64,000 nucleotides of DNA from an uncultured bacterium (GCA_963719425.1 OY970382.1:650880-714879), one strand, 5' to 3'. Shown: positions 910-13,973, counted from the stretch's first letter. A program made the numbers and translations. Notes: a model not told the origin generated them from the letters alone.

Positions 910-1980
910 ATGCCTTTTATCAAATCATTGGGTGCGTTTGTTATCGGGCTATTTATCACCTTGAGCGGCGTTTTTGGTTTGCATAAAAATCTCCCGAGTA
1001 GTCCAATTGCGCCCCCTCCCGAACAAAATCAGATAAGTATCACAACCGCAAGCAATACGCCAACTCTGAAAAAGAATGTTAGTTCTAGTGATGATATAAA
1101 AGTAAAACCCCCCAGCATTATTTTAAGCCAACCTAAAATCGAACAGAACACAACGCCAGAAGCATCAGTTACAACCGACTCAGAATCTCAGAAAATATTA
1201 ATATCTGAAGTAGATACATTGCAGAGTTTCCTTAATTTCTATCAAACGTTTTTATTGGAAACACAGAAAGGGATACCACAAGCGTTAAGTTCGATTACCA
1301 CGGACTACAACTCAGCTACGGGCGCAATAACTGCTGAGTATAATATGAATAAAGATTCTTTGACCTCGCAATACAATATGGGTGAATCATATTTAGCAAG
1401 AGCTAAAGATAAAATTAGTCTGAGCCCCGGGATAATAAAAAGCGTCGAGGATAATTATGTGCTTGCTAAAAGCTCGTTTGAATCTTTATATCAAGACGAG
1501 TCGCAACAGCTCCAATCCTCTTATAGCCAATGCACAAATCAAGCGAGCAGTGTAGAAAAATCCAATACCGATAATTACCAATCCATGTCGAGTTACATAT
1601 CTTTAGAACTACCAATCATCAGTTCTCAGCTAAATTTATTGAATCAGTTTAGCAATAAACTTTCGTCGCCACTTTCCGTGTCGGATTTAGCAGAAATAAA
1701 TGCCTCTCTGAGTCAAAACTTTCCTGAATTACAAAATTCAAACTACTATGATTCTTCCGAGGGCGCAATCGTAGAAAGGCCGGAATATGCAAATGGATTT
1801 CCTGCAAACGCCATAGCACAATGCAATGACGGAACATATAGTTTCAGCGAAAATAGCAGCGGGACTTGCTCCTCGCATGGGGGCGTGAATAGTCTGCTAT
1901 ATACGCCACAAGTGAGCGATTGCGTTTCGGCTGCTGCCGATCTGCCATTGGATGATTTACAAAGCCAACTCGGTCTTTAG
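910..1980 (+). CDS. Hypothetical membrane-anchored Ser/Thr/Gln/Asn-rich protein (N-terminal TM helix)
   Basis: 356-aa ORF with N-terminal hydrophobic helix (GAFVIGLFITLSGVFGL). About 37% GC against ~55% background. A TATACT box lies 8 nt upstream of the ATG. Sits inside the IR-bounded cassette. Confidence 0.55.
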   Translation: MPFIKSLGAFVIGLFITLSGVFGLHKNLPSSPIAPPPEQNQISITTASNTPTLKKNVSSSDDIKVKPPSIILSQPKIEQNTTPEASVTTDSESQKILISEVDTLQSFLNFYQTFLLETQKGIPQALSSITTDYNSATGAITAEYNMNKDSLTSQYNMGESYLARAKDKISLSPGIIKSVEDNYVLAKSSFESLYQDESQQLQSSYSQCTNQASSVEKSNTDNYQSMSSYISLELPIISSQLNLLNQFSNKLSSPLSVSDLAEINASLSQNFPELQNSNYYDSSEGAIVERPEYANGFPANAIAQCNDGTYSFSENSSGTCSSHGGVNSLLYTPQVSDCVSAAADLPLDDLQSQLGL

Positions 1981-2016
1981 TTTAGCCACGAGAGAGGTTA
2001 TTTAAAAAAACAAATT

Positions 2017-2223
2017 ATGAAAAAATATATCCCAGCACCAATTGTAATTGTGTCGTTTGTCGGATTGCTTTTGGCATATCACTTTGCGCCTTGGTGGCTT
2101 TTTGAACTCATTATCGTTGCTTTCATAGGAATAATTTGGGGAGGGCTTTGGTTGCTTGGAGGATATGCCGAAAGAAAGAAAAAAGTAAATCCTAATCAAG
2201 AACAGGAGAAAACAGAAAAATAA
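2017..2223 (+). CDS. Small hypothetical membrane protein (2 TM)
   Basis: 68-aa ORF with two hydrophobic helices and a Lys/Glu-rich tail. AT-rich like the upstream gene. Inside the IR-bounded cassette. Confidence 0.4.
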   Translation: MKKYIPAPIVIVSFVGLLLAYHFAPWWLFELIIVAFIGIIWGGLWLLGGYAERKKKVNPNQEQEKTEK

Positions 2224-2415
2224 GATTAATTTATTAAATCAGATATTTCCAAGGGAGCTAGATCGCCTCTTGCCCGCGCAATGGGAGGGCTGGGGCAAGG
2301 GCAAGAACCGCTTTCTGAAGGGTCAGACACACAAAGACGTAGGATTTTCTCACTAGACAGGAATAGGGTCGCAAGACGCGGGACTACCACCTCTGAGCGC
2401 GCCTCAAAGGAGGGG

Positions 2416-7233: not shown

Positions 7234-7476
7234 TTACGGTCGCTCTTTTAAAATTCTGGCGATTTTCCCCAAATGTTCCGTGAAGGCTTTTGCTTTTACG
7301 ATGACAATGCCGTCATCAAAAGGAGTGCCTATGATAAGGAATCGTTCGCCCGATTTTATATGGAGTTTTTTCCGCGCTTCCGCCGGGATGACAACTTGCC
7401 CCTTCTCGTTGATCGTCGATGTCCCATAGATTTCCGACATGGGAGGTATAAAATTACCCTTTTTATTACTTTTCAT
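7234..7476 (-). CDS. AbrB/MazE/SpoVT-family DNA-binding protein (possible antitoxin/regulator)
   Basis: 80 aa. GQVVIPAEARKKLHIKSGERFLI matches the swapped-hairpin AbrB/MazE motif. Immediately downstream of the serine recombinase on the same strand. Confidence 0.6.
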   Translation of the reverse strand: MKSNKKGNFIPPMSEIYGTSTINEKGQVVIPAEARKKLHIKSGERFLIIGTPFDDGIVIVKAKAFTEHLGKIARILKERP

Positions 7477-7540
7477 ATACTTATTATACTACCTCTGGCG
7501 CTATTTTGTTTCAATTTGCAAAATAAGCGCCCAAAAATCA

Positions 7541-8896
7541 TTATAAAATGTCGCTCTTCTTTTCAATCACAAGCTGCTTATTCTTCAGCACCAGCCAGCT
7601 CTTGAGGTTCGTTAGCAACTCCCTTTTCTCCGTAATGCTACCCTCTTTGAGGAGGTATTTAGCATAGGTCTTGAAATCGATGTCGTTGGTTTCTTTCCTG
7701 ATTTTCTCCTCGATTTTGTCGGTACCAAACATCGCCCGCTTAAAGTGTTTATAGCGTTCAATCTCTTCTTCAAATTTCTTTTTGACGCCGAGCTCGTTCA
7801 TGTCGATCCGGTCCATGAGTTTCACGAGCTGTGCAATCAAATCCTCCTCGCGGATCGCACCGCCCTTGCAGTGCAGATCCCTCGATCGTGTGCAGGCGTA
7901 ATAGACGTAGCGATGCACGTTCCCATTTTTCTGCTTCTTGAATTTCTCATCGGCCGTAATGCCCGATCCACACTCGGCGCATTTGATGAGCTTTGTAAAA
8001 GCGAACTCTTTTGATTCCCGTTGGATATGATCTCGCTTTAGTTGTTCCTGTACCTTGTCGAATAAATCTCGCGAGATGAGCGGCTCATGCTTCCCATTGT
8101 ACCAGTTGCCACTTTTCTGCGGATACTCGAAGACGCCGTAATAAAAGGTATTTTGGAGAAGAACATAAATATTTCCGAGCGATAAATGGTGGTTGCTCTT
8201 AGTCCGGAAATTCAGCTCAAATTTCAACCAGTGGAAAAGCTTCCTCCCCGACCAGCGGTCGAAGGCCACCTTTTCGAACATCTTCTTGATAACGGGCGCG
8301 CGCTCGGGATCAATAATAACTTGGCATTTCCGCTCGGCGAGCCGTTGCGTGAGATAGCCCGTGGGTGGGGTTGTCGGCCATAAACCCATCTCGCATCGCG
8401 CCCGCTGCCCTCTCTTTATATTCACGCCTCGGTTGTCGTTCTCAAGCTTCGCCTGCGAGCACAGGATCATGAGGAGGAACTTCTCGTTTGGCGAGTTACT
8501 GAATCGCTGACCGTAAGTGCGGATCTCCATAAGGAGCTTCTGGTCCATGAGGTCCACGAGCGATCCAAGGTCGCCCGCGTTCCTTGAGAGCCGATCAGGT
8601 GCCCACGTGAGGATGCCGTTGAACTTGCCCATGCGAAGATCGTTGATCATCTCGTTGAAGATGGGTCGTTGTCCGGTCGCTTTCGCCGAATGGCTCTCGC
8701 GCTTCATCTCCACGATTTCAAGATTCTCGCGCTCGGCAATCTGGAGCATCTCCTTTATCTGCGAATCAATGGAAAGGATCTGACGCTCCTCCGATTCCGT
8801 GCTTTTCCTCGCGTAAAGGCAGTATTTGACCTTTATGGGAGCCTCCACTGCCGTCTGGGTCCCGACTCCCCGGGGATCCGTTGTTTTTGCTGTCAT
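7541..8896 (-). CDS. Large serine recombinase (resolvase domain + recombinase domain + zinc ribbon)
   Basis: 451 aa. N-terminal YARKSTESEERQ…SIDSQ catalytic Ser region, central recombinase domain, C-terminal CAECGSG…C zinc-ribbon and coiled coil. Confidence 0.9.
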   Translation of the reverse strand: MTAKTTDPRGVGTQTAVEAPIKVKYCLYARKSTESEERQILSIDSQIKEMLQIAERENLEIVEMKRESHSAKATGQRPIFNEMINDLRMGKFNGILTWAPDRLSRNAGDLGSLVDLMDQKLLMEIRTYGQRFSNSPNEKFLLMILCSQAKLENDNRGVNIKRGQRARCEMGLWPTTPPTGYLTQRLAERKCQVIIDPERAPVIKKMFEKVAFDRWSGRKLFHWLKFELNFRTKSNHHLSLGNIYVLLQNTFYYGVFEYPQKSGNWYNGKHEPLISRDLFDKVQEQLKRDHIQRESKEFAFTKLIKCAECGSGITADEKFKKQKNGNVHRYVYYACTRSRDLHCKGGAIREEDLIAQLVKLMDRIDMNELGVKKKFEEEIERYKHFKRAMFGTDKIEEKIRKETNDIDFKTYAKYLLKEGSITEKRELLTNLKSWLVLKNKQLVIEKKSDIL

Positions 8897-8948
8897 ACCA
8901 CAAGGGATGACGCAACGGTGGATGGAGTCCAGACCCCTCGGAAGGCCC

Positions 8949-8977
8949 TTGAAAAACCCCTAAAAATGTGGTATTCT
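8949..8977 (+). promoter_or_regulatory. Putative sigma70-like promoter for the 9047..10460 gene pair
   Basis: TTGAAA (8949-8954), 17-nt spacer, TATTCT (8972-8977), about 70 nt upstream of ATG 9047. Confidence 0.4.
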
Positions 8978-9046
8978 CATGGGAAATAAGCCCTCGAAAT
9001 TGAGAGAAAGGTCGATTGTGTAAAATCAGCTAACAACAATATTTTC

Positions 9047-9631
9047 ATGACCAAAGAAACATTCTCAAAAGAACTCAAAGAGATCCTCGAGCTTGTAAAA
9101 ATGTGCCCACAAAATCTCCAAGAAAAATGCTTCGAGATTCTTCTTAATGATGCGCTGACATCAATGAAGGGAGGGCGGCGCGCGGACACGGGAGCGAAGG
9201 GAGAAATACCTGACCGCGCCGACGTCGGGGCATCGGGCGTACCCCCCGAGATCAAAAAACGAATCAAGGTCTTCGCCGAACATCACCAGCTTTCCGATGT
9301 TGAGATTTATAAAGTGTTCGGCGTCGACGAAGCGGGAAATGTAAGCATCGAGGCTGCGGATTTGAAGTCTAAGAAAGTTGCGCAACAACAGCGGCGGCTA
9401 GCGTTGCTAATCGGTGTCAAGCATCAATTCGCAGAGAGCAGCTTTGATGTACCAAAGGATGAGTTGCGCGAAGCGTGCGTAACCTATGGAGCATACGACG
9501 CCGCAAACTTTGTGCAGAATCTCAAAAATATGAAAGAGATATTCGCCGGCTTCAAGCCAACCGCGACCAACAAATTATCTCCCTTGGGGAAGACACAAGC
9601 AGCGGCTCTCGTTAAGGAATTAGCTTTGTAA
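9047..9631 (+). CDS. Hypothetical protein (first gene of two-gene module)
   Basis: 194-aa ORF, no recognisable motifs. Stop lies 8 nt before the start of the next ORF, suggesting translational coupling. Confidence 0.55.
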   Translation: MTKETFSKELKEILELVKMCPQNLQEKCFEILLNDALTSMKGGRRADTGAKGEIPDRADVGASGVPPEIKKRIKVFAEHHQLSDVEIYKVFGVDEAGNVSIEAADLKSKKVAQQQRRLALLIGVKHQFAESSFDVPKDELREACVTYGAYDAANFVQNLKNMKEIFAGFKPTATNKLSPLGKTQAAALVKELAL

Positions 9632-9641
9632 ATTATGCCGC

Positions 9642-10460
9642 ATGGTAGAACAACTGGAACGCTTCCTGTCGTCCCTTGCGGAACTTCAAGAAGCCATCAA
9701 GAAAAATAAATCCGACTTTATTTCTCGCTCCGCTCTGCGAGGTAGCGTTGCAGATTGCGGGAAGTTTTGGCTTGGTAAGCTCTCGACCCAAATCCGTGGT
9801 GAGGGGTTGATTGACGATCAAATTCTTAACGCGATAGATGAAAAAATCGAAAAGTTGTTAGAGTTGACTTCGAATAACAACCGAAAAAACTCTTACCTCG
9901 GTTTGCTCAACGCGCTGCCGAAGGAAATCCAAAAGGGAGTCCTCGTCCCTATTATCAAGAAAACGAAAACGGCGCAAAATCCACTCGCCGCCTCGATCCT
10001 GTCGAAGATTTATTCCAGCCTCTCTTCTGACGAGGAGAGAAAATATTTTGAGGAGGCTGCTCGGGCGGCGGCCAGTGAGTGCTATAAGGCTGCAACAGTA
10101 ATGGTATGGTGCGCAGCAATTGATAGGCTTCGAAAGGTGGTTGAGAAGTTAGGTTTGAAAAATTTTAATAAAACCTCGAAACAGCTGAAGGCGCGGAAGA
10201 CCGGGTACTATAAACGTTTTTCTAAAGAATTTGATATATCACAGACCAACGAATTACCGGAGGTTTTTGATAAAGATTTGATCACGGTTCTTTCGGCAAT
10301 GGTAAATCTGGATTTGAACGAACTAGCAGCGATTATCCACCTCTTTGACGTACGCAACCACTGTGCCCATCCGTCTAGCTACGTCATGGACGAATTGGCC
10401 TATATCAACTACCTCAATGAGGTGTTGAAACTGGTGCTGTCCAATCCAAAATTTCTATAA
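9642..10460 (+). CDS. Hypothetical protein with C-terminal Rx4H HEPN-like motif (Abi/HEPN-like RNase candidate)
   Basis: 272 aa, mostly α-helical. The C-terminal …LFDVRNHCAHPSSY… fits the HEPN Rx4-6H motif, reminiscent of Abi2/AbiD-type HEPN domains (inference from the motif only). Confidence 0.55.
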   Translation: MVEQLERFLSSLAELQEAIKKNKSDFISRSALRGSVADCGKFWLGKLSTQIRGEGLIDDQILNAIDEKIEKLLELTSNNNRKNSYLGLLNALPKEIQKGVLVPIIKKTKTAQNPLAASILSKIYSSLSSDEERKYFEEAARAAASECYKAATVMVWCAAIDRLRKVVEKLGLKNFNKTSKQLKARKTGYYKRFSKEFDISQTNELPEVFDKDLITVLSAMVNLDLNELAAIIHLFDVRNHCAHPSSYVMDELAYINYLNEVLKLVLSNPKFL

Positions 10461-10479
10461 ATTTTCTGCTCTCGGGCAG

Positions 10480-10920
10480 GATCAAATGAGACATCGCCCC
10501 GAGACACGCAAAAAGTGTCTCATTTGTCTCATTTGATCAAAAAAAGTCTTATTTTACGGGCTTCGGTTTTTCGAAATGAGACACTGGTTTGTCCCACTGG
10601 AACACCCAGTTTTGTGTCTCATTTTGTCCCATTTCGGACACGTCCGGAATGCCGTTTTGGTGTCCGATTTGTCCGATTTGGCACACCGGGATGGCACACG
10701 AAAAAGTGCCTATGCTGTGTGCCATTTGTGCCATTTTCTCCCAAAATGTTACATGCCCCGGCAGTGTAACATTTGTAACATTTTGGGCGTTGCGCTTGGG
10801 ATGTTGCATTCCGGATCCCTTGAAAACACACATATTTTCGGTCTTGGCTGGCCACCCCACCGCAGAGGTGTCATTTCCCAAATGTTACACATCGTGTTGC
10901 ATTTGGTGCATGTTGCATTT
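10480..10920. repeat. Degenerate dyad/direct-repeat array of GT-NNN-CATTTG words with stepwise-varying cores
   Basis: Tandem pairs gtctcatttg×2, gtcccatttcg, gtccgatttg×2, gtgccatttg×2, gtaacatttg×2, gttgcatttg/gtgcatgttgcattt, each preceded by a matching inverted half-site (gagacac…gtgtctc, ggacacgtcc, ggcacac…gtgcc, tgttaca…tgtaaca). Region is open in 5 of 6 frames; the translated products look non-proteinaceous. Confidence 0.8.
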
Positions 10921-11100
10921 ACCCTAAATCCAAGAGCGACCTCCCGGCTTCAAAAACCGCTTTTCCAAGAAAGCCCTGAAAGGCTCATCAAAAAGAGGTT
11001 CCCGACCGAGGATCACCGCCCGTTAGTGCGTAAGTTTGAGGGGCCGCTTTGCCTAGTTTAACGCATTTCCACCCTGAGCTATAATTAGGGCATCAATAAT

Positions 11101-11274
11101 ATGAAGTTCAATATTTCTTCAAAATATTTTATCCCAATAGGAATCGCGCTCTATATTATTTTTCTTATCATAGGAGGCGTTATCGGCAGCGCAATTGGAA
11201 CAGTCGGATTTATCTTGTTTCTGTTGGGCCTCTTTGACATACTGCGTTCATGGTTTAAGAAGGGCAAGTCATAA
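11101..11274 (+). CDS. Small hypothetical 2-TM peptide (57 aa; below ORF-track cutoff)
   Basis: ATG at 11101 preceded by TATAAT (11079-11084). Product MKFNISSKYFIPIGIALYIIFLIIGGVIGSAIGTVGFILFLLGLFDILRSWFKKGKS has two hydrophobic helices. Confidence 0.35.
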   Translation: MKFNISSKYFIPIGIALYIIFLIIGGVIGSAIGTVGFILFLLGLFDILRSWFKKGKS

Positions 11275-11409
11275 TATGAATAAAGGAGGTGATTTGAATT
11301 GCGATAAATGCGGAAGAACAATAAAATCAAAACCGAACTAATCCTTTATTGGCTATTTCAGTATTTGAAGTTCGTGTAAATAATCGAAATCTTACTTATA
11401 TCGTAGACA

Positions 11410-11868
11410 ATGATAGATAAAAATCCAAAAGGACTTTTTAGGGAGGATTTGAAAAGCGCCAAAGTTATAAGCGTGGGGAATAAATTTGGTATTGAGGCGG
11501 AATACATTGGTGGCGAAAAAGAATTACTCCACGATTCGTTTAATTCTTCCGATGAAGCTCAAAAGGAGATTGACGAGACTCTAAAATGGGTCGGTAGAAT
11601 TTCCCTATCAGATTCAATTAAGGCGACGGACGAGGTATTTGTTAAGATTGTTGACAACATTAAATGGGAGGCGAATGACCTCGCGCTCATTGGTATCTTA
11701 TTCACATTGATGGTTGGGCTGATTCCCCTGGTCAACCTTCTAGTTAAAAATTTATTCGCAGCCTGTATAATTGCTGTTATTAGCACAACAATCCTAATGG
11801 TGATAATTGCGAAGATAAAGATTGTTAAACGCCCTATAATCATATTCTTTAGATGGCTTTTGAAATAG
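11410..11868 (+). CDS. Hypothetical protein with soluble N-domain and two C-terminal TM helices
   Basis: 152 aa. C-terminal LALIGILFTLMVGLIPLVNLLV and IIAVISTTILMVIIAKI hydrophobic segments. AT-rich. Confidence 0.5.
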   Translation: MIDKNPKGLFREDLKSAKVISVGNKFGIEAEYIGGEKELLHDSFNSSDEAQKEIDETLKWVGRISLSDSIKATDEVFVKIVDNIKWEANDLALIGILFTLMVGLIPLVNLLVKNLFAACIIAVISTTILMVIIAKIKIVKRPIIIFFRWLLK

Positions 11869-11920
11869 AATCATAAAGTCGAGTATGTTCTCGTTATTCT
11901 ACTGACGGATCCGGGTTTTG

Positions 11921-12010
11921 GGGAAATAGACCCCGACCGACCCGCCTCAAATGACCGATTTCCAAGAACGTTGCGATGGATTGCCAGGATTTGGTTCTAG
12001 ACCTCTTCAC
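11921..12010. repeat. Direct repeat A (~95 nt), upstream flank of the nucleotidyltransferase gene
   Basis: About 80% identical to 12881..12975. Conserved core …CCGAC(C/T)CGCCTCAAA(T/C)G(A/G)CCGATTT(C/T)CAAGAA(C/T)GTTG…GGATTTGGTTC…CACCGC. Confidence 0.7.
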
Positions 12011-12038
12011 ACCGCCAGTTGGGAAAAACACAAATATT

Positions 12039-12830
12039 ATGAGTGAAAATTTAGATCATATACTAGAACACAAAAGATTCGCTCCAACCCCGGAATCGCT
12101 TAGCGCCATGAAAAATATCCGAGACATGCTTGAGGGCATACAAAAAAATATTCCCGGAATCCGCGGGATAGGTTTTATGGGGTCGCGAACAAAAGGCCAG
12201 GAAAAAGCAGATTCAGATTTAGATATTGTTGTTTTTTACGACTGGAATATAGTATTTAACACCAAGAAATATATAAACAAAGAAGTTATTCGAGATTCAT
12301 TTCCAGTAGATATCCCCCTCGATGTGGAGCATTATGGTGCTTTACATTTGGTAGAGATAGGTAAAGGGTCATTAGATTCTGAAATTTCTGACCTTGTTGC
12401 CACAGCCAATGAGATTGCTGAAGGAGAAAATATTCCAGTGGAACAAATTCCCACATTACCTTTCCGGTCACCTTTGAGCAATTTATTTATGCTTGCGGTT
12501 GGTGACCAGGTTTATAAAGCGAGGAGATATGTGCTTGAACAATTACAGTCCAAACCTTACGGAGAAAAATACCTTCAACTTTTAATGAAGCAACTCTCTA
12601 AAGACGAACGCGAAGGAACCAGGAAACGAATAAGCCCGCAATATCCGAATTACCCTAAAACTTTTGAAGACGCAGAAAAGTTTTTTATTACCGAACCCTA
12701 CGATCTTGAAGAATTAAACGCGCCACTTATATCGCCGGCCAAAGAAGAGCCAAGGCGTTTAGGAGAAACTATTACAGCAGCGATTAACAAATTCTATTTG
12801 AACCTTAAATCGAAGAAGGGACGTGAGTAA
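12039..12830 (+). CDS. Nucleotidyltransferase-domain protein (pol-β/minimal-NTase fold with C-terminal helical domain)
   Basis: GIGFMGSRTKGQEKADSDLDIVVFYD (GS…DxD) plus a third acidic residue at DIPLDVEH about 30 aa later. Start placed at ATG 12039 because the upstream part of ORF 11976 overlaps repeat A. Gene is about 27-30% GC. Confidence 0.7.
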   Translation: MSENLDHILEHKRFAPTPESLSAMKNIRDMLEGIQKNIPGIRGIGFMGSRTKGQEKADSDLDIVVFYDWNIVFNTKKYINKEVIRDSFPVDIPLDVEHYGALHLVEIGKGSLDSEISDLVATANEIAEGENIPVEQIPTLPFRSPLSNLFMLAVGDQVYKARRYVLEQLQSKPYGEKYLQLLMKQLSKDEREGTRKRISPQYPNYPKTFEDAEKFFITEPYDLEELNAPLISPAKEEPRRLGETITAAINKFYLNLKSKKGRE

Positions 12831-12880
12831 TGATCTGAGTTTGTGTAAAAAATTGGGTGCCATCTATATCGTTATAACGG

Positions 12881-12975
12881 AAAATTGAACCCTACCGACT
12901 CGCCTCAAACGGCCGATTTTCAAGAATGTTGTAACGGCTTGCTGGGATTTGGTTCCCGACCGAGGAACACCGCAG
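12881..12975. repeat. Direct repeat B (~95 nt), downstream flank of the nucleotidyltransferase gene
   Basis: Aligns with 11921..12010. Ends GGTTCCCGACCGAGGAACACCGC, sharing GGTTCCCGACCGAGGA(T/A)CACCGC with 10999..11021. Confidence 0.7.
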
Positions 12976-13184
12976 ATTTGGTTGAAGATTATTTTCCACC
13001 GCGAGCGGCCACGCTTCGCGTGGCATGAAATCTAGCTTTCCCTCGCCGAGCCGGGAGTTCGGGGCTGCCTAGCATCCATAGGTTCTCGCCCTCAGGTTTT
13101 AGCATCGCAAAAAATTTAGGGATAAATCGGAGAGGATCGCCGATCCGGAAAAAATGACGAAAAAAAGGTTATAATCTGATATAT

Positions 13185-13973
13185 ATGATCGAAGTAAGTA
13201 ATTTGACCAAAAAATATGGTGATCTTACGGCAGTAAATAACGTGAGCTTCACCGTGAACGACGGAGAGGTGTTCGCGTTCCTCGGTCCCAACGGCGCGGG
13301 TAAAACTACGACCGTGAAGATGCTCACGACGCTGCTTCATCCCACTGCGGGGGTTATGAGGCTTAATAATATTGATCCCGTACGCGAACCGGAGCAGGCG
13401 CGCCGAACATTCGGGATTGTGTTTCAGGATCCAAGCTTGGATGACGACCTGACCGCCTGGGAAAATATGGATTTGCACGGGGTGCTCTATGACGTGCCGG
13501 ATGAGGCGCGACGGAAAGGGTGCGAGGAACTCCTGAAGTTCGTTGATCTCTGGGATCGCAAAGATAGCGTAGTCAAAGAATTTTCCGGAGGAATGAAGCG
13601 TCGGCTTGAAATCGCCCGGGGACTCTTGCACGAACCCAAGATCCTCTTCCTTGATGAGCCGACGACAGGCCTCGACCCTCAAACGCGGAACCTCATGTGG
13701 GACCGCCTGCAGGATCTCAATAAGACCAAGGGAATGACGATCTTTCTCACAACCCATTACATGGAGGAAGCCGACAGGATGGCGAATCGCATCGCCATAA
13801 TGGATGAAGGCAAGATCATCGCCACCGGGACTCCGGACGAACTGAAGAAGCAAACGAATACCGAGTTCCTTGAGGATGCGTTCCTCGCGCTCACGGGCAA
13901 GACCATTCGCGACGAAGGGGCCAGTTCCACCGACCACGCGAGAACCATAGGCCGCCGGATGGGAAGAAGATAA
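13185..13973 (+). CDS. ABC transporter ATP-binding protein (ABC-2/DrrA-like)
   Basis: Walker A GPNGAGKTT, signature FSGGMKRRLEIARGLL, Walker B ILFLDEPTTGLD. TATAAT at about 13171. Confidence 0.9.
   Translation: MIEVSNLTKKYGDLTAVNNVSFTVNDGEVFAFLGPNGAGKTTTVKMLTTLLHPTAGVMRLNNIDPVREPEQARRTFGIVFQDPSLDDDLTAWENMDLHGVLYDVPDEARRKGCEELLKFVDLWDRKDSVVKEFSGGMKRRLEIARGLLHEPKILFLDEPTTGLDPQTRNLMWDRLQDLNKTKGMTIFLTTHYMEEADRMANRIAIMDEGKIIATGTPDELKKQTNTEFLEDAFLALTGKTIRDEGASSTDHARTIGRRMGRR

Follow-up and report, generated by a model that had tools for sequence, protein, structure and literature searches.

A winged-helix and HEPN gene pair on a mosaic island of a patescibacterial genome: a candidate abortive-infection or toxin–antitoxin-like module

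We have analysed a stretch of 64,000 nucleotides (nt) from an uncultured bacterium (GCA_963719425.1, OY970382.1:650880-714879), referred to here as the window. The host genome belongs to the ultra-small Patescibacteria, also known as the candidate phyla radiation (CPR). Within the window a mosaic island carries two adjacent genes, which encode a 194-residue protein with a predicted winged-helix fold and a 272-residue protein with a HEPN-type domain. We consider it rather probable that this pair is a two-component abortive-infection (Abi) or toxin–antitoxin (TA)-like defence module on a recombinase-borne mosaic island, and that the nucleotidyltransferase (NTase) and small transmembrane (TM) genes located further along the island lie outside it. 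An original prediction for this DNA had assembled the HEPN-like gene, the NTase and the membrane genes into a single candidate system. The recombinase-borne island and a genuine two-gene candidate with a HEPN motif remain from that proposal; the HEPN–NTase–membrane system does not.

The HEPN-type protein, its partner and their genomic contexts

The C-terminal domain of the 272-residue protein is matched by three independent profile libraries and contains an invariant RNxxAHPS sequence, and for these reasons we assign it to the HEPN type. Residues 122–244 align with positions 8–121 of the 432 in the PADLOC profile PD-T7-3 (E-value of 1.3e-5), residues 131–268 match PHROG 27609 (1.1e-10), and two PDB entries, 'Dandelion-hepn' (9wx2) and 'Dandelion' (9wxf, a 460-residue protein deposited as 12 chains), are matched at 2.6e-5. 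The PD-T7-3 alignment stops at the RNHCAH motif, which is the position of the catalytic motif in DARNA, as the PD-T7-3 protein is now called. This motif, already noted in the original prediction as a HEPN-like VRNHCAH, is highly conserved: Arg238, Asn239, Ala242, His243, Pro244 and Ser245 are invariant among 14 homologues sharing 50–84% identity. Two marks of the HEPN superfamily are found, profile homology to an established HEPN family and an Rx4–6H motif, which in this superfamily is usually R-[NHD]-x-x-x-H and sits on the last core helix. From this HEPN-type domain and its conserved motif, RNase activity is predicted for the 272-residue protein. An AlphaFold2 model is all-α and confident (predicted local distance difference test score of 90). 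The homologues form 19 clusters, every one of which has the precomputed Pfam assignment PF27235 ('AF_1680'), a family for which we found no literature. Named relatives belong to the 'Minisyncoccia'.

The 194-residue partner is predicted to adopt a winged-helix fold in its C-terminal domain. Its N-terminal helical hairpin carries the sequence CPxxLQEKCFExLL, and the linker that follows (residues 42–61) is disordered and variable, an indirect hint, and the only one, of a labile antitoxin. The protein falls into 42 homologue clusters to which no family is assigned, and the AbiEi models among the PADLOC profiles gave no sequence match to it. Upstream of the gene there is a promoter-like site where the original prediction had placed a promoter. 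No shared operator was found upstream of the partner gene across the nine loci compared. A perfect DnaA-box-like 9-mer (TTATCCACA) occurs just upstream of the partner gene in two related loci, at about 7385–7400 in L005 and about 2485–2500 in L064, and is absent from the window.

Related loci were fetched for comparison and labelled L001 onward; coordinates otherwise refer to the window. The pair was recovered in nine independent contexts: the window itself, L001–L004, L005–L007, L008–L009, L010–L011, L012–L013, L058–L060, L061–L063 and L064. In all nine the genes are direct neighbours, their order is unchanged and 0–18 nt separate them, even where the partner is only 29% identical. The spacing in the window is 10 nt, in keeping with the translational coupling that had been proposed. 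An upstream DNA-binding partner tightly coupled to a downstream nuclease is the canonical layout of type II TA and Abi modules, and a DNA-binding-type gene followed by a tightly coupled putative toxin is what is seen at every locus. The other pair contexts contain no relatives of the island NTase or of its TM genes, nor of the 95-nt repeats and the hairpin array described below. On this comparison the pair is a conserved two-gene unit.

Six of the nine contexts have bona fide defence genes immediately upstream of the pair. Among these neighbours are, in one context each, a type I restriction–modification (RM) system (REase_I, 2.6e-137), an EcoRI-like restriction endonuclease with a D12 methyltransferase, and a His-Me type II restriction endonuclease (1.2e-43) with an N6_N4 methyltransferase. 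In L005 (5734–7311, minus strand), and also in L006 and L007, the pair adjoins a gene for a 525-residue protein in which the DNA-binding domain of LexA is joined to an S24 peptidase and to a C5 DNA methyltransferase (PADLOC MTase_II, 6e-126). In one lineage (L061, 437–2197) the pair is immediately preceded by AbiLi (1.5e-74) and AbiLii (2e-8), and in L008 and L009 by AbiEii (3.5e-47). Three contexts have a rolling-circle Rep gene or genes for recombinases or integrases in the vicinity. Adjacency to Abi and RM systems is a classic signature of defence islands. Since RM, AbiL or AbiE genes adjoin the pair in six of nine contexts, and since the gene order is TA-like, the pair is probably a virus-defence or TA module. 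The abortive-infection or addiction locus of the original prediction can therefore be retained for the pair, given these defence-island contexts, and not for the island as one system. As a separate observation, the LexA–S24–C5 methyltransferase fusion could be an SOS-cleavable methylase.

Table 1. Features of the island and its left flank (window coordinates; a point in the strand column denotes no strand)
Feature	Position	Strand	Remarks
AbrB/SpoVT-type regulator	7234..7476	-	TIGR01439 7e-13; flanking core gene, outside the insertion
Left junction of variable/inserted region	7521..7540	.	blastn homology ends at 7520 (L015) and 7493 (L014)
Large serine recombinase (integrase type)	7541..8896	-	Island's left end; Pfam domains: Resolvase 1.4e-18, Recombinase 1.1e-13, Zn_ribbon_recom 6e-9
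Sigma-70-like promoter of the two-gene module	8949..8977	+	TTGAAA-17-TATTCT with extended TG; 9/12 matches; consensus match only
194-aa partner protein	9047..9631	+	N-terminal helical hairpin, variable linker, C-terminal winged-helix domain
272-aa PF27235 (AF_1680) protein	9642..10460	+	Helical domain at the N-terminus (aa 1-120), HEPN domain at the C-terminus (aa 122-272)
RNHCAH (Rx4H) putative HEPN catalytic motif codons	10353..10370	+	aa 238-243
Dyad/hairpin array	10478..10925	.	About 6 units, about 450 bp, between the HEPN stop codon and rep1
Direct repeat rep1	10937..11019	+	3' 23 nt 96% identical to rep3
Promoter-like site upstream of the 57-aa gene	11058..11085	+	TTAACG-16-TATAAT; 10/12 matches
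57-aa hydrophobic peptide	11101..11274	+	Low-GC cassette A; hydrophobic aa 5-52, room for 2 TM helices; GC 37.4%
152-aa protein, C-terminal double-TM region	11410..11868	+	Low-GC cassette A; hydrophobic aa 87-147; GC 37.9%; no family
Direct repeat rep2	11921..12018	+	95 nt, 77% identical to rep3; likeness in the 5' two-thirds
263-aa Pol-beta-superfamily NTase	12039..12830	+	Low-GC cassette B; family-specific helical C-terminal half; GC 39.4%
Direct repeat rep3	12879..12976	+	A further, partial copy of its 3' end follows at 12975-13005

Comparison with known systems and a proposed mechanism

The abortive-infection protein PD-T7-3 has been renamed DARNA. The HEPN domain at its N-terminus (R117x4H122) cleaves most tRNAs in their anticodon loops; the protein becomes active in response to single-stranded DNA (ssDNA) presented by the phage single-stranded DNA-binding protein and forms a dodecamer (bioRxiv 10.64898/2026.02.22.705581). 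DARNA ('Dandelion', PDB 9wx2/9wxf) and the 272-residue protein share the same HEPN sequence type, with YFEEa..a...CY+aATVM.W helices and the Rx4H motif. Because the HEPN domain is of the DARNA type, the predicted effector chemistry is the cleavage of RNA, probably tRNA, leading to growth arrest. The two proteins are organized differently. DARNA has its HEPN domain at the N-terminus, joined to a Pds5-like ssDNA-sensing domain of about 300 residues, and acts alone, as a dodecamer. In the 272-residue protein, by contrast, an unrelated helical domain of 120 residues comes first and the HEPN domain follows at the C-terminus, and there is no Pds5-like domain. The pair also has an obligatory, separate winged-helix partner, and the similarity is low (E-values of about 1e-5 to 1e-10) and confined to the one domain. 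We therefore do not place the pair among DARNA/PD-T7-3 systems, which consist of a single polypeptide of about 430–460 residues: here the protein has 272 residues, matches only the part of the profile given above and has a partner gene.

A second comparison is with HepT/MntA, a type VII TA system in which, as predicted for the pair, an Rx4H RNase toxin of the HEPN type is controlled by the product of the gene directly upstream. In the pair this gene codes for a winged-helix protein and not for a minimal nucleotidyltransferase (MNT), and the HEPN domain is not of the DUF86/HepT type. Membership of the HEPN/MNT systems was rejected, as it is the winged-helix gene that adjoins the HEPN gene in nine of nine contexts, and the island NTase is 1.6 kb away in another cassette. 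AbiEi/AbiEii, a type IV TA and Abi system, likewise is a two-gene operon in which a winged-helix regulator or antitoxin is upstream and a toxin downstream. The AbiE toxin, however, is an NTase, a GTP-dependent modifier of tRNA, whereas the pair has a predicted HEPN RNase. RnlA/RnlB, LsoA/LsoB and AbiF/AbiD resemble the pair as HEPN endoribonuclease effectors of abortive infection which are held in check by a cognate antitoxin, protein or RNA; profile searches gave no sequence match to any of these families. The RNA antitoxin of AbiF is, to our knowledge, the only parallel for an array of structured RNA beside a HEPN gene. In contrast to AbiF, the hairpin array of the window is downstream, heterogeneous and absent from every other pair locus. 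The pair is not among the systems of PADLOC v2. It is best classed as a new representative of a kind already known, the HEPN nuclease modules of the Abi and TA type.

The following scheme, in which we infer the RNA target, the neutralization and the trigger, builds on the domain identities, pair conservation and neighbourhoods observed above. The HEPN protein would dimerize and cut RNA through Arg238 and His243. By analogy with DARNA, the likeliest target would be tRNA anticodon loops, the cleavage of which would stop translation. The partner may autoregulate the operon through its winged helix and neutralize the nuclease through the N-terminal hairpin and a labile linker, releasing it upon infection or loss of the element. 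Alternatively, the partner might be a nucleic-acid sensor and so substitute for the C-terminal domain with which DARNA senses ssDNA in cis.

The island, its cassettes and its non-coding arrays

The pair is part of a mosaic insertion of about 5.7 kb, roughly 7521–13184, in the divergent intergenic space between two MacB/HlyD-type ATP-binding cassette (ABC) operons. All open reading frames (ORFs) of the original prediction are in place, as are its export operons on either side. The site between the AbrB–HlyD genes and the second ABC operon differs among the relatives L014 (4439–13599) and L015 (60–10879). Unrelated genes (DUF5666, NTPase_I-T, AIR-synthase-like) fill about 8 kb of it in L015. In L014 the second, right-hand operon is arranged in tandem and not divergently, with only 1.5 kb between the operons. 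As these relatives hold different content there, we regard the site as a variable spot and 7521–13184 as the approximate insertion. The left break in homology with L015 is 20 nt from the recombinase stop codon (7541). The gene at the far left had been identified as AbrB/MazE-like and counted as part of the island. The AbrB-type identity holds, and its place is outside: it adjoins the orthologous HlyD gene in L014 and L015 (94–97% amino-acid identity), neither of which has the island, and DNA homology continues up to 7520, which makes it a core gene and not cargo.

At the left end of the island is the large serine recombinase that had been predicted. It has a resolvase catalytic domain, a recombinase domain and a zinc ribbon, as would be looked for in the recombinase of a mobile island, and matches the PHROG 95 integrase at 5.8e-65; the match to CcrB is partial and far under the cut-off. 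Comparison of the left junction with 10400–13200 for att-like repeats, direct or inverted, gave nothing beyond what shuffled sequence gives. The GC content is 51.7% for the window, 52–54% for the flanks and 45% for the island, within which the recombinase and pair part has 45–50% and the TM and NTase part 37–39%. This recombinase-linked and compositionally mosaic insertion is in line with the horizontal acquisition originally proposed. A second patch of low GC content in the window (1000–2250, 37–43%) overlaps an ORF of 356 residues containing DUF3761 (910–1980) and may be acquired too.

Three direct repeats of about 95 nt bound two low-GC segments of about 0.9–1.0 kb, one with the TM genes and the other with the NTase. 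The original prediction had reported the repeats on either side of the NTase, rep2 and rep3; the third copy, rep1, is an addition. Their similarity is mosaic, rep1 sharing its 3' part and rep2 its 5' part with rep3. Such a pattern is reminiscent of the hybrid att sites that repeated insertions into a single target would leave. No further copies are present in the window or in any fetched locus, and the repeat core was found 0 times in IMG/VR. The repeats were considered as tRNA fragments and this was rejected: ARAGORN finds none, and there is no consistent fold, only the minus strand of rep1 folding well. Rfam gave no match to the repeats.

The NTase and the small membrane genes are independent low-GC cassettes, unlinked to the HEPN pair. 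The GS…DxD motifs predicted for the NTase are confirmed and the protein just passes the Pfam NTP_transf_2 cut-off (23.5 bits against 21); the GC content of about 28% first given for the gene is not. An exhaustive phmmer search placed it in a family of 173 representatives of 220–280 residues, aligned over residues 8–220, with invariant GS and SD.D motifs and a family-specific C-terminal half (RFFLxVGDxVYxNRxYILD...ER). Likeness to the MNT antitoxins is confined to the GS..DxD core of about 55 residues (PDB profile match to 7ae2_B, 7e-7). The scores against MntA (NF047752) are 1e-3 and 18.8 bits, against a cut-off of 60; with 263 residues the protein is also larger than MntA-family NTases (about 100–150 residues), and we rejected that assignment. 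PADLOC PDC-S09 is matched at 2e-4. Among the PADLOC and Pfam models only generic Pol-β NTase models are matched, and none for a CD-NTase, a SMODS domain or a cyclic-oligonucleotide-based anti-phage signalling system (CBASS).

Six genomic contexts of the NTase family were recovered. In L051 (11–3085), L053 (3701–6941) and L054 the NTase relative is translationally coupled between a Mur-ligase-family gene and a canonical tgt (tRNA-guanine transglycosylase), a conserved three-gene arrangement. One other relative adjoins a SIR2_2 protein and another a HigB/HigA-like pair. Neither HEPN proteins, PF27235 included, nor TM proteins are encoded next to the NTase in these six loci. A tblastn search of the NTase against plasmids and phages gave no match. 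We do not assign the island NTase to CBASS, which would combine a CD-NTase/SMODS protein with an effector, since there is no model match and the relatives have no TM neighbours. The hydrophobic stretches of the 57-residue peptide and the 152-residue protein are each long enough for the two helices that had been proposed, and a promoter-like site precedes the former gene, again as proposed. The 57-residue peptide matches no family in Pfam, PADLOC, PHROG or the other profile libraries. Between these two genes there is a tiny ORF with a CxxC motif (MNKGGDLNCDKCGRTIKSKPN, 11276–11341), inside which lies a strong AGGAGG.

The dyad array that the original prediction had described downstream of the HEPN gene is real. 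Each unit is composed of tandem 9-mers of the form TGTnnnATT and, upstream of them, an inverted copy whose central triplet is identical. The central triplets are CTC, CCC, CCG, GCC, AAC and TGC, and the stem triplets covary. There are 14 forward and 5 reverse copies of TGTNNNAT in 450 bp, and the strict double motif TGTNNNATTTGTNNNATT is observed four times against an expectation of 0. The fold z-score against shuffled sequence is -7.8 for the plus strand and -5.8 for the minus strand. An independent short-read assembly (Logan contig L185) reproduces the array at 100%, which excludes an artefact of assembly. With their 3' arms duplicated in a register of 9 nt, the hairpins can pair in two registers. 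The two ends of L185, which corresponds to 8861–10982, lie within the 5' end of the recombinase gene and within rep1, perhaps because the population is heterogeneous, or repeats occur, at these points.

The array is absent from 57 related loci and from all other pair loci. As it does not travel with the pair we have left it out of the module. No Rfam family was found at the gathering threshold across the whole window, nor at E ≤ 5 in 8900–13250, the region that covers the array and the repeats. A scan of IMG/VR for the dyad pattern returned isolated 9-mer tandems of a single type and no counterpart of the array. A coding function, as CxxC-like Cys-x-Ile repeats, was rejected, the units being in different frames and having no Pfam support. 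A type III TA system with a toxIN-like RNA repeat antitoxin was also rejected, given the downstream position, heterogeneity and restricted occurrence of the array. The array and the repeat-bounded cassettes are the only parts of the island that could be categorically new. It is very improbable, in our estimation, that this non-coding architecture is a serine-recombinase-linked, integron-like platform for gene capture, or a structured array, of RNA or of ssDNA, that acts on the adjacent HEPN nuclease as a regulator or decoy.

Alternative readings and implications

Several observations weigh against a defence module. Foldseek searches of the PDB with the model of the 272-residue protein gave no match at E < 0.4, and structure searches are not specific for HEPN; the sequence alignments to Dandelion in the PDB span the first HEPN helices only, a phmmer alignment of the HEPN half to the PDB fell short of the Rx4H motif, and the local Pfam copy gave no match to a HEPN family. 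The function of the PF27235 members and of the partner is a prediction, and the role of the latter, antitoxin or sensor, is purely inferred. Three of the nine contexts (the window, L010/L011 and L012) have housekeeping or non-defence neighbours. Relatives of the pair were found neither on IMG/VR viral contigs (0 matches) nor, by tblastn, on plasmids or phages, and there is therefore no direct link to known mobile defence cargo beyond chromosomal islands. The housekeeping-like contexts and the unspecific structure searches would suit a non-toxic factor for RNA processing or RNA binding, or a non-catalytic HEPN-like domain, with coincidental neighbourhoods. We regard this as quite unlikely: the Arg, Asn and His residues of the catalytic motif are invariant, the profile matches indicate a family of active anticodon nucleases, and the distribution of the pair is patchy and island-like with differing neighbours. 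An unlikely alternative, though one to be taken more seriously, is that the pair serves simply for addiction (type II TA-like) or regulation, stabilizing mobile elements or RM cassettes and having no anti-phage activity. The gene order and tight coupling match those of canonical type II TA systems, the pair often has a Rep gene or genes for recombinases or integrases beside it, and the absence from viral contigs fits as well. The adjacency to Abi and RM systems nevertheless points to defence, as does the fact that the closest characterized HEPN relative is a proven Abi defence protein; nor are TA and Abi roles mutually exclusive.

That the whole island forms one system, with the HEPN protein and the NTase as the halves of a HEPN/MNT-like TA or Abi module, or with the NTase and TM proteins as a CBASS-like system, was the proposal of the original prediction and now appears extremely improbable. 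In its favour, the HEPN-like and NTase genes are on the same strand 1.6 kb apart, and the NTase core is nearest to MNT antitoxins, as seen in the 7ae2_B, MntA and PDC-S09 matches. This likeness is, however, limited to the short core of a 263-residue protein which has its own conserved C-terminal half, and no CD-NTase, SMODS or CBASS model is matched. Co-occurrence across genomes, which had been put forward as a check, is seen for the two genes of the pair in every context, whereas NTase or TM genes accompany the pair in none of the nine and no NTase locus has a HEPN neighbour. Three of the six NTase loci are instead Mur-ligase/NTase/tgt operons, and in the island the NTase and the TM genes occupy different cassettes of low GC content, each bounded by repeats. 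Both the HEPN/MNT and the CBASS reading fail because the co-occurrence that defines them is absent from both the pair contexts and the NTase contexts. Treating these genes as unrelated cassettes averts the false annotation of a new multi-gene system.

We know of few catalogued defence systems described in CPR/Patescibacteria. If the defence or TA-like reading of the pair is correct, the compact combination of winged-helix and HEPN proteins, found beside RM, AbiL and AbiE genes in many of these genomes, would be an immune or addiction module typical of this lineage. The pair would then represent a natural 'split' relative of DARNA, in which regulation or sensing resides on a separate protein, and such an arrangement would be useful for learning how HEPN nucleases stay silent and are then triggered.

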